64,000 bases of DNA from an uncultured Cytophagales bacterium (GTDB taxonomy: Bacteria > Bacteroidota > Bacteroidia > Cytophagales > JAAEPT01), in contig CAZEGV010000002.1 of assembly GCA_964511645.1 (NCBI GenBank), forward strand, positions 2,689 to 66,688, in the 5' to 3' direction. The notes under the pieces were generated by a model. The model searched no databases, had not been told where the DNA came from, and worked only from the letters and a program-made list of their open reading frames with translations. Shown here piece by piece: positions 51,437-56,006 of the stretch (position 1 is the stretch's first letter; every line of letters starts with the position of its first letter). Position numbers and translations under genes: made by a program.

Positions 51437-52372
51437 TCAAATATTTTCTTCTAACTCAGGCTTCTCTACTGATTGCAAACAGGTTCTTATAAAGACATAA
51501 GCCAAGCCTCCAAAAATCATAGTTGAAACTATAATATAACCAATAGACGGATGGTCAAGTGTTTGGGCTTCATCTGGTAAAAATGAAAATGCCATTACAA
51601 TGATGAAATTATTAATGAAGTGAGCGATGACAGGAATGTAAAATTTACCCGAATAAAAATATAGGTAACCAAAAAAAGCCCCCATTACCACACGAGGGAA
51701 AAATCCAAAAAAAGAAAAATGGATAAGACTAAAGATGACTCCAGCAGACCAAATGGCTAAATGAGGATTTTTAAATAACTTTATTAAAGAGTTTTGAATG
51801 ATTCCTCTAAAAACGATTTCTTCGGCTATAGCAGGTACTACTGCCATAAACAAGGTTAACAAAATAGTATTAAAAAATGTATTGTGATTACTTCCTAGAT
51901 AGCTAAACATCTCATTATAAGCTTGCTCTTTTTCTAAAGCAGCTATCCTGAATGATTCCCAGCTATTGGGTAGGATAATGTTATTGTTCCAATCAGCGAT
52001 GATACTAATTAAAGGAAGAATAGCAAACATTAACATTATAGAGAGAAAAACAAGGAACTCAACTGGTACTTTATTTTTTTTGCTCAACTGAAAAGGTATC
52101 CGTTCACCATATTTTTTAAAAAACAATAAAGTAGGTAACAATAAGCCACAGATAAGAAAAAAAGCATTAAATGCCAGTATTCGTGGCATATACTGTGGGT
52201 AATCCGAAAGATTATTCATTACCTTTTGTAGCAAATCATTACTACCGTTAAATAGGATTAAGCCTAGCACAGAGCTAGCCAATAAGCCAAAGATTAAACC
52301 TATAAGGGAGTAAATTGCATAGCGTGCTAAAGTCTCTCGAGCAGAAAGCTTAGAATTATTCAAATTATTCAT
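51437..52372 (-). CDS. CPBP-family intramembrane glutamic endopeptidase
   Basis: EE..FRG (AEEIVFRG), a downstream H-containing helix (FSLIH) and HFINN. Confidence 0.75.
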   Translation of the reverse strand: MNNLNNSKLSARETLARYAIYSLIGLIFGLLASSVLGLILFNGSNDLLQKVMNNLSDYPQYMPRILAFNAFFLICGLLLPTLLFFKKYGERIPFQLSKKNKVPVEFLVFLSIMLMFAILPLISIIADWNNNIILPNSWESFRIAALEKEQAYNEMFSYLGSNHNTFFNTILLTLFMAVVPAIAEEIVFRGIIQNSLIKLFKNPHLAIWSAGVIFSLIHFSFFGFFPRVVMGAFFGYLYFYSGKFYIPVIAHFINNFIIVMAFSFLPDEAQTLDHPSIGYIIVSTMIFGGLAYVFIRTCLQSVEKPELEENI

Positions 52373-52429: not shown

Positions 52430-53410
52430 ATGAGTGTTAAAATTGGCAATATTGATTTAGGAGAGTTTCCACTATTACTTGCTCCAATGGAAGATGTAAG
52501 TGATCCACCTTTTAGGGCTGTATGCAAAGCAAATGGTGCGGACATGATGTATACCGAATTTATCTCTTCGGAAGGGTTGATTAGAGACGCTCGAAAAAGT
52601 CGTCAGAAACTTGATATTTATGAAGATGAGAGACCTATTGGGATTCAAATATTTGGAGACAAAATAGACTCTATGCGTGAAGCGGCATCTATTGCTGAGC
52701 AAGCTAACCCAGAATTGATAGACATAAACTACGGTTGCCCTGTAAAGAAAGTGGCTTGTAAAGGAGCTGGAGCAGGGATTCTTAGAGATGTTCCCAAAAT
52801 GGAACAAATGACCCGAGAAATTGTAAAACAAGTAGATCTTCCTGTTACTGTCAAAACCCGACTCGGCTGGGATAGCGATACCGTGCAGATTGTAGAAGTC
52901 GCTTTAAGACTGCAAGATGCAGGAATCAAAGCTTTGAGTATACATGGTAGAACAAGGATGCAGATGTACAAAGGGGAAGCCGATTGGACAGAAATTGCCG
53001 CAGTCAAAAACCATCCTGATATAGAAATTCCGATTTTTGGGAACGGTGATATTGATTCACCCGAAAAAGCATTGTTATACAAAGAAAAATACAATGTAGA
53101 CGGCATTATGATTGGAAGAGCCGCCATTGGTTATCCTTGGATTTTTAATGAAATCAAACACTACCTTGCTACAGGAGAGCAACTCCCCAAACCCACAGTA
53201 AATGAACGTATTATTGCCTGTGAGCAACACCTCAACTTCTCTCTTAGTTGGAAAGGAGAGCGGCAAGGAGTCTTAGAAATGAGGAGACATTACACCAATT
53301 ATTTTAAAGGAATGACAAATTTTAAACCATTCAGGACTCGATTGGTAGAGACATTAGAACCTAACGAAATTAAGCAAATTTTGACCGAAGTAAAAGGATA
53401 TTATAGTTGA
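52430..53410 (+). CDS. dusB: tRNA-dihydrouridine synthase
   Basis: LAPMEDV.D..FR, INYGCP.KKV and HGRT motifs. Confidence 0.85.
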   Translation: MSVKIGNIDLGEFPLLLAPMEDVSDPPFRAVCKANGADMMYTEFISSEGLIRDARKSRQKLDIYEDERPIGIQIFGDKIDSMREAASIAEQANPELIDINYGCPVKKVACKGAGAGILRDVPKMEQMTREIVKQVDLPVTVKTRLGWDSDTVQIVEVALRLQDAGIKALSIHGRTRMQMYKGEADWTEIAAVKNHPDIEIPIFGNGDIDSPEKALLYKEKYNVDGIMIGRAAIGYPWIFNEIKHYLATGEQLPKPTVNERIIACEQHLNFSLSWKGERQGVLEMRRHYTNYFKGMTNFKPFRTRLVETLEPNEIKQILTEVKGYYS

Positions 53411-53691
53411 TGAACCCAATTAAAATAAGCGATCGAGCGCTAACCGAAATCAAAAATATTTTTGACACCAAAGGCATTCCATCTGATTATTGCCTCAGAA
53501 TTACCGTAAAAGGTAGTGGATGTGCCGGAATTAATCACGCTATTGGTTTTGATAAACTTGGAGACAATGACGAACAATACGACTATGATGGATTGAAAGT
53601 AATCATCAACAAAAAAGACTTTATGCACCTTATTGGTGTTTCTGTGGACTTTACAGAAAGTAATGATGTCACGGGATTTGTTTTTAGTTAA
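53407..53691 (+). CDS. HesB/IscA-like protein lacking the C-terminal Cys-Gly-Cys motif
   Basis: LRITVKGSGCAG core and ...DVTGFVF near the end, but the ORF stops where family members continue with NPNA...CGCG.SF. Confidence 0.6.
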   Translation: MMNPIKISDRALTEIKNIFDTKGIPSDYCLRITVKGSGCAGINHAIGFDKLGDNDEQYDYDGLKVIINKKDFMHLIGVSVDFTESNDVTGFVFS

Positions 53692-53699
53692 ATTGTGGG

Positions 53700-53884
53700 A
53701 GCTTCCCTATCGTTTCACTCTCGTGGCTATTTCGCCCCAACGGTCGGGTCATTCGTTCCCAATCTTTGTTGTTTTTATGATTCTCCCATACTGAGCCTGT
53801 TAGTATCAGCATGAGCTTGCCGAAGATAAAATGAACTTTATCCGTAAAAAAACAACAAAGGATTTCCACTGCTACCCCTAAGCC
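53700..53884 (-). repeat. Structured interspersed repeat, copy C (inverted orientation, expanded apex)
   Basis: The reverse complement carries the same ordered blocks. Hairpin arms 53761-53780 / 53845-53864; closing helix GGCTT/AAGCT. Confidence 0.75.
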
Positions 53885-53960
53885 ATTTCTCGATTGAGTC
53901 AAATATAATTGTTAATACACCTTTTCTTGTCTATCTTGTTATTATATAAACCTCTTTATT

Positions 53961-54926
53961 ATGCGAACGATTTTATTTATTAGTCTAATTATTTGTAGCA
54001 GTTTACTCATTGTTACTGAAACGATTTATCCAATTGAAGGAAGTTTACTTAAAATCATATTAGCGATAAGTACTTTGCTTTCAGGAGTATTGATGTTTAT
54101 TTTCTCAGCATTAAACTTAGAGGAATTCAAAAATAGGTTAGCTAACCTAAATAAAGATTTTGTTAAAAATGACAAAGCCCTAAAAATTCAAATAGAAAAA
54201 TCTGAGCAGATTGATGAAACGCTAGCCAAATATGAGCAAGTAAAATTAGAGTTTGAAGTCAGTAAAAAAAGTGTTTTAACCCTAGAACAAGAAAAACAAA
54301 ACATACAGCTCAACCTCAATGTACTCAAGCAAGAAGGAGGTGAAAACAATATCCAGACTCAAAGCCTAAAGCAAGAATTGAGTCAAGCACAAAGTAATAA
54401 TAATGAACTAAGTATTGAGAATAATGAACTTAAACGCAATGTGCTAAATCTTGAAATGAAACTAGCACAAAGCATCAATATCCGCCCAGTTAAAAAAGCT
54501 GAGTCGACTATTGCTACTACTGATTTTCAGTTCAACAATAAAGAAGAATGTTTACAAGTATTGGCTGATAAGAAGTGGAATGAAGTACATCAATACGAGT
54601 GCTCTAAATGTGAAAACACTAACTATAATGCCCTTAATCACCTAAATTCTCGAAAATGTACCCGTTGTAACCATATAGAGTCTGCAATGGCACGCACGAT
54701 ATTTACAGGAGTAAGATTCCCCTTAGAAAAAGCATTTCACATTACTCAATTGGTATTTGATGAGCCTAAAATTCCGATTGAAAAATTAATTAAAGAAACT
54801 GAGTTGAGTAAAAACACTTGCTGGAAGTTTAAAAAGAAAATAATTAAACAAATAAGTGCTTACCAAAAGAAAAACAAACTAAAAGCCAATAAATGGGAAG
54901 ATATTATATACCCTAGTTTTATTTAA
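53961..54926 (+). CDS. Membrane-anchored coiled-coil protein with an IS1595-type transposase Zn-ribbon/HTH module and no DDE domain
   Basis: Two N-terminal TM helices and a Q/E/N/L-rich coiled coil. C-terminus reads ECSKCE...RKCTRCNH.ESAMARTIFTGVRFPLEKAFHITQLVF...LSKNTCWKFKKKI, resembling IS1595 N-termini (CP.CG...C..C...FS...GTIF...KLPL.KWF.AI.L...). Confidence 0.6.
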   Translation: MRTILFISLIICSSLLIVTETIYPIEGSLLKIILAISTLLSGVLMFIFSALNLEEFKNRLANLNKDFVKNDKALKIQIEKSEQIDETLAKYEQVKLEFEVSKKSVLTLEQEKQNIQLNLNVLKQEGGENNIQTQSLKQELSQAQSNNNELSIENNELKRNVLNLEMKLAQSINIRPVKKAESTIATTDFQFNNKEECLQVLADKKWNEVHQYECSKCENTNYNALNHLNSRKCTRCNHIESAMARTIFTGVRFPLEKAFHITQLVFDEPKIPIEKLIKETELSKNTCWKFKKKIIKQISAYQKKNKLKANKWEDIIYPSFI

Positions 54927-54959: not shown

Positions 54960-56006
54960 TTAGTGGGTAATTACTATTTTCTTGCGTATTACTTCTGTGT
55001 TTAGCTTTATCTGAAAAACATAAACACCCGACTTTAAAAGCCTTGTATCAAATACTGTGTGCACATTTGTAATACTTTTAGAGTGCATTACCTTTCCTGT
55101 AACATCTATAACGCTTAGCAAGCTACTACTTTCGGTAGCTACTTGAGGTAAATCAATAAATAATGAGACCTTAGCAGGATTTGGATATATATTGATTTCG
55201 GATTTCGTTATATCAACCGCTATTACTTTTGATTTGGTGCTTGTGCCATCATAATCGTATTGTACCAATCGATAATAAGATACTCCATCCTCTGGATTAT
55301 AATCTAGAAGATTATAATGTAATAGCTCATTACTAGTACCCGCACCAGTAAGTGCCTCAATAGCAATAAACTCGTTACTAGCATTTGCTTTTTCGATTAT
55401 AAAATAGCTGTTGTTTGTTTCCGAAACCGTTGTCCACGACAATTGAGTCGCATTACTCTCATTAGAATAAACTCCTGAGAAGGAGAGTAGCTCGATGGGT
55501 AAGCCTACTCCAAAGGCAACTTTAATAGGACCGCAAGGACCAGCAGAAAAAACACTTCCCCCATTTATAAAGTTTAAAGCAGTATTACCTGCCGCACAAA
55601 TGACATTATCTACTATTCCTGTAATGTTTGACTGCACAGTTAGTGACCCCATCGCTGAGAAATCTAAAATTCCTCCGCTTACATTCCAGCTACCAGTAGT
55701 GTTATTAAATGCAGCAGCTCCACCACCTACAACTTTCAATGTTCCCCCCGACATATTCAATGTTTCTCCATTAGTAAGAATCGCCACACTAGAAATAGTA
55801 AGCTCACCAGCGGTAAGAGTCATTGTCCCCGCATAAAAAAGAGGTAAAACAACAGACATTCCACCATGAGAAACAGTTACGTTATCATTAACGCCAATAG
55901 TTGCTGGTGGCACGATGTCCCAAGTACCTACTCCCGTAGAAGTATAAGTAGCTCCGTAGCTAAAACTAAATGCTAGTAAAATAGAAATAAATAAAATCTG
56001 TTTCAT
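54960..56006 (-). CDS. T9SS-secreted protein with Gly/Thr-rich beta-helix-like passenger
   Basis: Signal peptide, repeated GG.L.V.GG-type segments, and a C-terminal CTD (INIYPNPA....GVYVFQI). Confidence 0.65.
   Translation of the reverse strand: MKQILFISILLAFSFSYGATYTSTGVGTWDIVPPATIGVNDNVTVSHGGMSVVLPLFYAGTMTLTAGELTISSVAILTNGETLNMSGGTLKVVGGGAAAFNNTTGSWNVSGGILDFSAMGSLTVQSNITGIVDNVICAAGNTALNFINGGSVFSAGPCGPIKVAFGVGLPIELLSFSGVYSNESNATQLSWTTVSETNNSYFIIEKANASNEFIAIEALTGAGTSNELLHYNLLDYNPEDGVSYYRLVQYDYDGTSTKSKVIAVDITKSEINIYPNPAKVSLFIDLPQVATESSSLLSVIDVTGKVMHSKSITNVHTVFDTRLLKSGVYVFQIKLNTEVIRKKIVITH

Follow-up and report, generated by a model that had tools for sequence, protein, structure and literature searches.

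A two-helix membrane protein with an IS1595-type DNA-binding head in an uncultured Cytophagales bacterium, and the receptor family to which it belongs

The gene considered here lies at positions 53961–54926 of a 64,000-nucleotide stretch of contig CAZEGV010000002.1 (assembly GCA_964511645.1) from an uncultured Cytophagales bacterium; the whole of this stretch is called the window below. It encodes P0001, a protein of 321 residues in which a membrane anchor of two transmembrane (TM) helices and a long coiled-coil stalk precede a C-terminal head homologous to the N-terminal DNA-binding module of IS1595-family transposases. Hundreds of receptors of the 7TMR-DISM type (~600 residues) and the Reg_prop/Y_Y_Y type (~1000 residues) in Cytophagales and Sphingobacteriales terminate in the same module, which is accompanied there by a portion of the coiled coil and a W-E-x-L tail. 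P0001 is probably a dimeric membrane-anchored DNA-binding regulator, a reduced and sensor-less offshoot of this Bacteroidota family of membrane-spanning one-component receptors. A preliminary description of the DNA, made from its letters alone, had read the protein as domesticated, non-transposing, membrane-tethered and DNA-binding, and this reading is supported by the homology statistics, by a pN of 0.09 against a pS of 0.78 in the head (non-synonymous and synonymous divergence, respectively), and by the occurrence of the same module at the end of hundreds of receptors.

Architecture of the protein and IS1595 homology of the head

The open reading frame is a complete coding sequence on the forward strand, stop codon included, and the peptide strings quoted in the preliminary description are present in its translation at the residues assigned to them. 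The gene and protein are divided as follows, with residue numbers referring to P0001 and HTH standing for helix-turn-helix.

53961–54926 (+): complete coding sequence of P0001, a membrane-anchored coiled coil with an IS1595-type zinc-ribbon/HTH head; the N-terminus MRTILF aligns with MRIVLF of three clade-mates.
53967–54026 (+): TM helix 1, residues 3–22 (hydrophobicity scan; AlphaFold2 helix 2–22).
54027–54041 (+): short acidic loop, residues 23–27, predicted to be extracytoplasmic; non-helical in the AlphaFold2 model and inside the conserved motif E20-x3-P24-x-E26.
54042–54110 (+): TM helix 2, residues 28–50, running on into the stalk (hydrophobicity scan; AlphaFold2).
54111–54479 (+): coiled-coil stalk, residues 51–173, with a kink at G126-G127 (AlphaFold2 helices 28–125 and 130–173; weak coiled-coil Pfam matches).
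54480–54539 (+): flexible linker, residues 174–193, low in model confidence at 175–187 and differing in length between clade members.
54540–54875 (+): IS1595-derived DNA-binding module, residues 194–305 (Pfam, NCBIfam, transposase alignment, BLASTP, hhalign, AlphaFold2, isoelectric point 9.4), made up of helix 194–209 (with C197, K205 and W206), the zinc ribbon C214-x2-C217...C233-x2-C236, and the HTH helices 255–267, 273–280 and 284–305, the last of which contains the recognition helix KNTCWKFKKK.
54876–54923 (+): receptor-specific C-terminal tail, residues 306–321, with W312-E313-x-I-I, occupying the place of the transposase catalytic domain (tail-motif counts).
53932–53939 (+): TATCTTGT, tentatively a Bacteroidota -7 promoter box, 22 nt before the ATG; an 8-mer found in the upstream regions of P0001 and its relatives P0002 and P0003.

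P0001 has two hydrophobic segments of membrane length, both near the N-terminus and joined by an acidic loop of 5–9 residues, so that the two TM helices of the preliminary description are recovered by the hydrophobicity scan and by AlphaFold2 alike. The AlphaFold2 model of the full-length protein, built with 68 aligned relatives as input, has a mean predicted local distance difference test (pLDDT) score of 84.7 and shows a helix at 2–22, a break at 23–27, a helix at 28–125, a GGEN kink at 126–129 and a further helix at 130–173. The coiled coil of about 120 residues described earlier thus corresponds to a continuous helix with a kink. Residues 175–187 are disordered in the model (pLDDT <50), and a compact C-terminal domain follows at 194–315 (pLDDT 91–98). 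When residues 187–321 are modelled alone (pLDDT 91.0, predicted TM-score 0.81), one helix is followed by three short strands around the two CxxC pairs and by three helices, the last of them long. The C-terminal domain is basic, with an isoelectric point of 9.4. Ahead of helix 1 stand M and R, the loop has two acidic and no basic residues, and seven K/R occur in the 30 residues past helix 2; by this positive-inside pattern both ends of P0001, the head included, are predicted to be cytoplasmic. A Foldseek search of the PDB with the full-length model returned coiled-coil noise only (best E 0.64), and a sequence search of the PDB gave nothing significant (E 0.4), so that no homologue of solved structure is at hand.

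The assignment of the head to the zinc ribbon and HTH of IS1595 transposases, proposed in the preliminary description, is confirmed, even though the family profiles alone match it marginally. The Pfam profile PF12760 scores 17.9 bits against residues 194–238 and 20.2 bits when only residues 187–321 are scanned, both below the gathering score of 25.4, and positions 3–61 of the NCBIfam IS1595 transposase model NF033547 match the HTH part weakly (E 0.004). These matches are outweighed by other evidence. The intact IS1595 transposase of the same genome, on contig C117, itself scores just 20.4 bits on PF12760, also below the gathering score, while the three closest relatives of P0001 score above it at 26.1–27.7 bits (P0002 26.1, P0003 27.7). 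BLASTP aligns residues 187–321 with the C117 transposase at 36% identity (E 3e-13), and hhalign aligns a profile of the four short proteins of the P0001 type with one of six transposases at 99.5% (E 1.6e-22) over 106 columns, residues 190–297 pairing with transposase residues 15–121, so that the match extends through the HTH. In the joint alignment of P0001 relatives and genuine transposases the zinc cysteines C214, C217, C233 and C236 are invariant, and so are C197, L198, L201, K205, W206, E240, S241, A244, T246, F253, K257, A258, T286, F290 and K293. The recognition-helix motif (K/R)-x-T-x-W-x-F-x-x-K is common to transposases and receptors.

The zinc ribbon with its four cysteines, the HTH and the recognition-helix motif are therefore shared with IS1595 transposases (PF12760 plus the catalytic DDE domain PF12762), and the remaining features of such elements are missing. 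In P0001 the module is C-terminal rather than N-terminal, and the gene is single-copy and sits in a housekeeping context. Homology to the transposases ends exactly at the start of their catalytic core (…HVDE…), and P0001 stops 24 residues further on. In keeping with the earlier claim that neither a DDE domain nor a downstream DDE remnant is present, PF12762 has no match in P0001 at E<=10, and tblastn with the catalytic part against the whole window found no DDE-like coding (best E 1.7). Likewise, no inverted repeats were found bracketing the gene, and the 35-nt terminal repeats of the C117 element have no copy near it; the terminal repeat TTTTTAGAGGTCAGTAG is found in this genome only at the C117 insertion sequence itself. 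That element (C117:599-1578) is intact and ~980 bp long, with terminal inverted repeats that are 80% complementary and a 297-aa transposase scoring 68.8 bits on PF12762, and it adjoins an IS3-type orfA/orfB. A search of the genome for paralogs and full-length IS1595 elements, as the preliminary description had advised, found no paralog of P0001, this one intact element, and two remnants: an N-terminal piece of 97 residues whose zinc ribbon is degenerate (C106) and a DDE piece of 90 residues (C47).

The receptor family and the short clade

The architecture, for which the preliminary description knew of no described function, is not confined to P0001: the fusion is common to a large family of 7TMR-DISM and Reg_prop receptors. 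A search of 40 related genomes with P0001 gave matches in 13, of which two (G003 and G021) have matches that are transposase-like open frames. In the remaining 11 genomes most matches lie in open frames of 600–720 aa and cover the query from about residue 90–135 to about 317, that is, the distal stalk and the head; G010 alone has 13 of them. Those of the long frames that were translated and scanned contain PF07696 (7TMR-DISMED2), PF07695 (7TMR-DISM_7TM) and a C-terminal PF12760 at or above the gathering score, and nothing else. An exhaustive phmmer search with residues 187–321 against 1.84 billion cluster representatives gave 789 matches at E<=0.001 and 388 at E<=1e-10. Nearly all of the best 150 are proteins of 580–650 aa with the match at the C-terminus and about three are transposases; seven are ~1000 aa long, and the four of these that were scanned have Reg_prop propellers and Y_Y_Y ahead of a single TM helix and the module.

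A word-indexed search seeded with one long member retrieved 105 proteins from Cytophagaceae, Cyclobacteriaceae, Pedobacter, Mucilaginibacter and Rubrolithibacter. Their source names include '7TM diverse intracellular signaling domain-containing protein', 'chromosome partitioning protein ParA', 'transposase', 'sensor histidine kinase LadS' and 'hypothetical protein', and none of the names recognises the output domain. Full-text searches on 7TMR-DISM with zinc ribbon, on PF12760/Zn_ribbon_IS1595 and on IS1595 domestication found no description of the receptor or short-form architecture. The module-bearing receptor family is undescribed in the searchable literature, and P0001 represents its smallest form, rare and sensor-less.

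The long receptors lack kinase, receiver, cyclase and GGDEF domains. Directly past their last TM helix they carry the signature …N-x-E-L-E-x-K-V-x-E-R-T-x-E-L… (130 of 195 7TMR and five of seven Reg_prop receptors), with the ERT ~87 residues before the zinc ribbon; this is the 'ERT' motif of the S-helix, a dimerising element, as described by Anantharaman, Balaji and Aravind (PMC1592074). The W-E-x-[LI] tail is present in 161 of 195 long 7TMR receptors, in six of seven Reg_prop receptors and in all four short proteins. A profile of the short clade aligns by hhalign with 60 long receptors at 100% (E 2.2e-43) over residues 135–317, a stretch that takes in the head and tail and a portion of the stalk. 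Since the region that P0001 has in common with the receptors is larger than the one it has in common with transposases, shared descent with the receptors is indicated rather than a separate transposase fragment that gained an anchor. What sets P0001 apart from these homologues is the absence of the DISMED2 ectodomain, of the PF07695 domain and of the ERT motif, and its length of 321 residues as against ~620 or 1000.

The receptors vary in their surroundings and in their length. Three long receptors (P0162, P0236 and P0171, at loci L050, L051 and L053) adjoin varied envelope genes, namely a PKD/CHU_C gene followed by four genes without a recorded Pfam family, the gene of a Por_Secre_tail protein, and, at the Pedobacter locus L051, a SusC/SusD pair; no single conserved neighbour was seen among the three. 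Truncated-looking receptor pieces occur in relatives as a 262-aa open reading frame in L009 that starts inside TM7 and as open frames of 245–401 aa in G010, G027 and G001. Other apparent shortened forms are P0055 (full 7TM, no ectodomain), P0025 (two helices), P0021 (one helix) and P0141. In the genome of P0001 itself no long receptor with the module was found, and the only 7TMR-DISM-type protein detected is a membrane histidine kinase of 626 residues with a LytTR response regulator encoded behind it (C76:5099-7704). After its TM helices and directly before its H-box, this kinase has a segment (IEQMKENEKMK...KIKLRTLELEEKN) that is very similar to the S-helix region of the zinc-ribbon receptors, a hint that these receptors descend from kinases of this type whose output domain was exchanged.

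Full-length relatives with the layout of P0001 are few. The word-indexed orthologue search returned only three, P0002, P0003 and P0004, all metagenomic, with identities of about 40% overall and about 60% in the head. Scanning 185,579 species-representative genomes gave long receptors only and no further short-form gene, and a 300-genome sample across the phylum, in a search that scores few candidates and is not sensitive, gave receptor-type matches only within the same order. All four short proteins start with M-R-(T/I)-(I/V)-L and end alike, with stalks of different length, and in their hairpins R2, L5, I10, C12, E20, P24, E26, L30, L34, G42, L44 and F48 are invariant. In a maximum-likelihood tree of 83 modules and 124 columns, rooted on a second and more distant IS1595 subgroup, the four are monophyletic (SH-like approximate likelihood-ratio test support 98) and are nested among the 7TMR-linked modules, several nodes down, with support values of 82–94, which are modest because just 124 columns were available. 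The transposases nearest the receptors, the C117 copy included, form a clade of their own (99), whose placement relative to the receptor radiation is left open by the tree.

The simplest history would be one exaptation from that transposase subgroup, a spread over receptor scaffolds, and then loss of the sensor and of most TM helices in the short clade. Consistent with such a loss, the ERT motif is absent at the aligned place in all four short proteins, an alignment feature that supports this history; P0001 has KQEGGEN there, which is the kink of the AlphaFold2 model. P0001 has no match to PF07695 at E<=10, none to PF07696, and none to HisKA, HATPase or REC, and with two TM helices it has five or more fewer than a 7TM domain. 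No similarity between its hairpin and TM6–TM7 of the 7TM domain could be detected, and the local hhalign alignment stops short of the TM region.

Between P0002 and P0003, pN/pS is 0.09/0.78 in the head, 0.24/0.91 in the hairpin and 0.31/0.83 in the stalk, with synonymous sites saturated (pS ~0.8). By these values the head is strongly constrained, the anchor moderately and the stalk more loosely, as would be expected for a coiled-coil sequence. The sensor-less two-helix form, its nesting in the receptor radiation, the loss of the S-helix motif and the evidence of selection are new here.

Genomic surroundings

The context of the P0001 gene is one of housekeeping genes. Before it lie genes for phosphatidylserine decarboxylase, CDP-diglyceride synthase, a CPBP/Rce1-like intramembrane protease, dihydrouridine synthase and a protein of the Fe-S biosynthesis family, the last an intact gene separated from P0001 by a 270-bp intergenic region. 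It encodes 94 residues (53407–53691, HesB/IscA-like) that match positions 3–97 of the 110 of the Pfam profile, slightly short at the C-terminus, and its start overlaps the stop of dihydrouridine synthase by 4 nt. After P0001, whose gene ends 33 bp from the end of its convergent neighbour, come this convergent gene for a protein sorted by the type IX secretion system (T9SS), and amino-acid kinase and semialdehyde dehydrogenase family genes, the latter two probably for arginine biosynthesis. The protease gene (51437–52372, minus strand) is 1.6 kb upstream of the P0001 gene and is not adjacent in relatives. An 18-nt inverted repeat, 17 of 18 positions complementary, has its arms at 53574–53591 in the Fe-S biosynthesis-family gene and at 55246–55263 in the convergent T9SS cargo gene; as both arms encode QYDYDG, it is probably a coding coincidence and not a pair of element ends. 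PADLOC gave no hit on P0001 and its neighbours.

Phylogenetic distribution and neighbourhood conservation, the further checks proposed in the preliminary description, gave the four-member short clade described above and a neighbourhood that is not conserved. The P0002 and P0003 genes are both divergent from sucA. The contig of P0002 comes from a close relative whose housekeeping proteins are 79–92% identical to those of the present genome, and P0002 is just 40% identical to P0001. In the genome of P0001, the sucA contig ends in a repeat, different from the one beside P0001, 420 bp past sucA. This repeat (C70:11600-11821) belongs to a family of ~165 nt with internal inverted symmetry that also occurs on C41, on C57 and at the other end of C70, and it ends C70 just beyond sucA, where close relatives carry the short-form gene. 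The differing location and the divergence of P0001 and P0002 indicate that either the gene has moved or the copies are old paralogues. The downstream genes of the three short-form copies are unrelated; those of P0002 and P0003 encode a secreted 286-aa protein and a repeat-rich 185-aa protein without a Pfam family on record.

The repeat copy said to adjoin the gene is real. It occupies 53700–53884, directly upstream, and is one of a family of dispersed, structured repeats for which the genome gives at least 54 matches, with full-length copies of ~180 nt and many half-copies. Rfam Flavo-1 matches 53738–53888 on the minus strand with 38.4 bits (E 9.6e-6), below the gathering score of 42. A functional link between the gene and this repeat was considered and rejected, since the element is dispersed and the intergenic regions upstream of P0002 and P0003 have no similarity to it, so that the adjacency looks coincidental.

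The two 8-mers common to the upstream regions of P0001, P0002 and P0003 are CAAATATA and TATCTTGT, and only the latter stands just ahead of the start codon in all three. Set against the Bacteroidota -7 consensus TAnnTTTG, it may be a promoter box rather than an operator. A scan for sigma-70 promoters and terminators scored at or below shuffle expectation, sigma-70 being the wrong promoter type for Bacteroidota.

Proposed role, alternatives and significance

The closest described parallel to the receptor relatives is BguR of Formosa agariphila, in which Reg_prop/Y_Y_Y domains, one TM helix, a helical linker and a GerE HTH are joined in one protein. The authors of the genetic analysis describe it as a one-component activator that spans the membrane and acts on a gene cluster for laminarin; its deletion abolishes growth on laminarin, and they compare it with SusR of Bacteroides (bioRxiv 10.64898/2026.01.10.698779). 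P0001 resembles BguR and SusR in leading from a membrane anchor over a helical linker to a predicted cytoplasmic HTH without a phosphorelay, and its Reg_prop/Y_Y_Y relatives share the sensor layout of BguR. By analogy with BguR, the transposase-derived head would be the DNA-binding output of the long receptors. The two differ in that BguR has a DNA-binding domain of the GerE/LuxR type (PF00196) and a large periplasmic beta-propeller, whereas the head of P0001 is transposase-derived and its predicted extracytoplasmic part consists of the loop 23–27 only. With ToxR, TcpP and CadC of Proteobacteria and with ChiS, P0001 may have in common that a protein integral to the membrane binds DNA; these have N-terminal winged HTH domains of the OmpR type, a single TM helix and a periplasmic domain, and no relation to P0001 in sequence or fold. 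ToxR and TcpP depend on the partner membrane proteins ToxS and TcpH, which is one way in which a sensor-less hairpin protein could be controlled.

In the proposed mechanism, the hairpin would insert into the inner membrane with both ends inside, and the stalk of ~120 residues, descending from the dimerising S-helix, would most likely form a parallel dimer. The flexible linker would let the two cytoplasmic zinc-ribbon and HTH heads reach DNA, and the dimer could then bind specific chromosomal sites, repeated or dyad, from the membrane and affect transcription. The head would have been exapted from an IS1595-family transposase, with the catalytic DDE domain replaced by a 20-residue tail. With neither an ectodomain nor an ERT switch left, P0001 would have to be controlled through its membrane-embedded part, by a partner, or by abundance or proteolysis, or else it would lack control and be constitutively active. 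The loop E20-P24-E26, invariant in the alignment of the short clade, is the obvious candidate for membrane-embedded control. If the head were freed by proteolysis, the CPBP/Rce1-like protease 1.6 kb upstream would be a candidate releaser, although nothing else links the two.

Several points weigh against a regulatory role of P0001. The head alone has no significant structural match in the PDB (Foldseek best E 0.62), its weak matches being mainly HTH regulators, besides CENP-B and one TFIIB zinc ribbon, and DNA binding by the module is a prediction for every member, IS1595 transposases included. The ERT of the S-helix, which serves signal transmission in the long receptors, is lost in the short clade, and this fits a non-signalling role equally well. 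A search for shared k-mers and palindromes found no target site, the three upstream regions sharing just the two 8-mers, and the neighbourhood differs between copies (beside sucA in two close relatives, between the Fe-S biosynthesis-family and T9SS cargo genes here), so that no regulon can be proposed. The clade itself is small, with three of its four sequences metagenomic, and the tree, built from few columns, is modestly supported at its internal nodes.

Three roles had been offered in the preliminary description, namely a DNA tether, a regulator and an anti-mobile-element factor. Of these, the regulator is the best, because P0001 is a reduced relative of the receptor family. The main rival is a structural tether of the kind of Noc or RacA. 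P0001 would then fix particular chromosomal or repeat sites to the inner membrane, with a part in the organisation of the nucleoid, in segregation or in occlusion, and would not control transcription. This is rather unlikely. The long rigid stalk with its flexible linker, the missing sensor domain and ERT motif, and the status of P0001 as the sole copy of its type in the genome would all suit such a protein, and the 54 or more dispersed repeat copies, one of them directly upstream, could in principle be its multiple targets. However, all relatives with a readable architecture are sensor-coupled receptors, as signal-dependent regulators look; a rare clade without a conserved position would be unusual for a core factor of chromosome organisation; and P0002 and P0003 lack the repeat upstream. 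A more ambitious version of the regulatory reading, tentative and rather unlikely, is that the short clade is a new kind of membrane transcription factor controlled wholly within the membrane. The E20-P24-E26 loop would then sense a membrane or envelope cue or a partner, or intramembrane proteolysis like that of SREBP would free the head, and the whole receptor family would form an undescribed one-component class built on an exapted transposase domain.

Truncated transposases such as Inh of Tn5 and InsA of IS1 are inhibitors of transposition, and a catalytically dead head could compete in a similar way for the terminal repeats of IS1595 and sequester them at the membrane. The head of P0001 is closest to the IS1595 subgroup that includes the one intact element of its genome (at the identity given above), in which the two IS1595 remnants also lie. 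Nevertheless, the anti-mobile-element option is improbable, because the receptor family and the IS1595 element do not co-occur: the receptor-type module is present in eight related genomes without a PF12762 match (G001, G005, G009, G010 with its 13 copies, G011, G025, G033 and G040), and G008 has nine IS1595 DDE matches and no receptor. In addition, the terminal repeat is confined to the insertion sequence itself, PADLOC gave no hit, and competitive inhibition needs neither a membrane anchor nor a long stalk. Even less probable is a decaying fragment without a function of its own, be it a recent N-terminal truncation of a 7TMR-DISM receptor or the 5' piece of a disrupted transposase gene. The truncated-looking receptor pieces of L009, G010, G027 and G001 and the dispersed repeat beside the gene would fit such an origin, but four sequences have the same start, the same hairpin with its invariant residues and the same end; the head has a pN of 0.09 despite saturated synonymous sites; and neither a 7TM-coding remnant upstream of the gene nor a DDE remnant downstream of it was found. 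Constraint and the absence of receptor remnants thus make a pseudogene or a recent truncation unlikely. Least probable of all is a modulator, dominant-negative or co-regulatory, that forms mixed coiled coils with full-length 7TMR-DISM zinc-ribbon receptors. P0001 does share its head, and its stalk from residue 135 onwards, with the long receptors, but the genome of P0001, which is 99.8% complete, has no long receptor with the module with which to pair, and its sole 7TMR-DISM protein found is the C76 histidine kinase paired with a LytTR regulator.

The domestication of transposase DNA-binding domains as cellular regulators is well documented in eukaryotes and rarely in bacteria. Here hundreds of membrane receptors from soil and aquatic Bacteroidota would have one IS1595-type head as their standard output. 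PF12760 is among the transposase markers of one recent paper (PMC13639185), and pipelines that use it in this way could count these receptors as mobile elements. As the smallest natural version, comprising an anchor, a stalk and a head, P0001 is convenient for testing the DNA binding of the head and the purpose of a sensor-less tethered protein.

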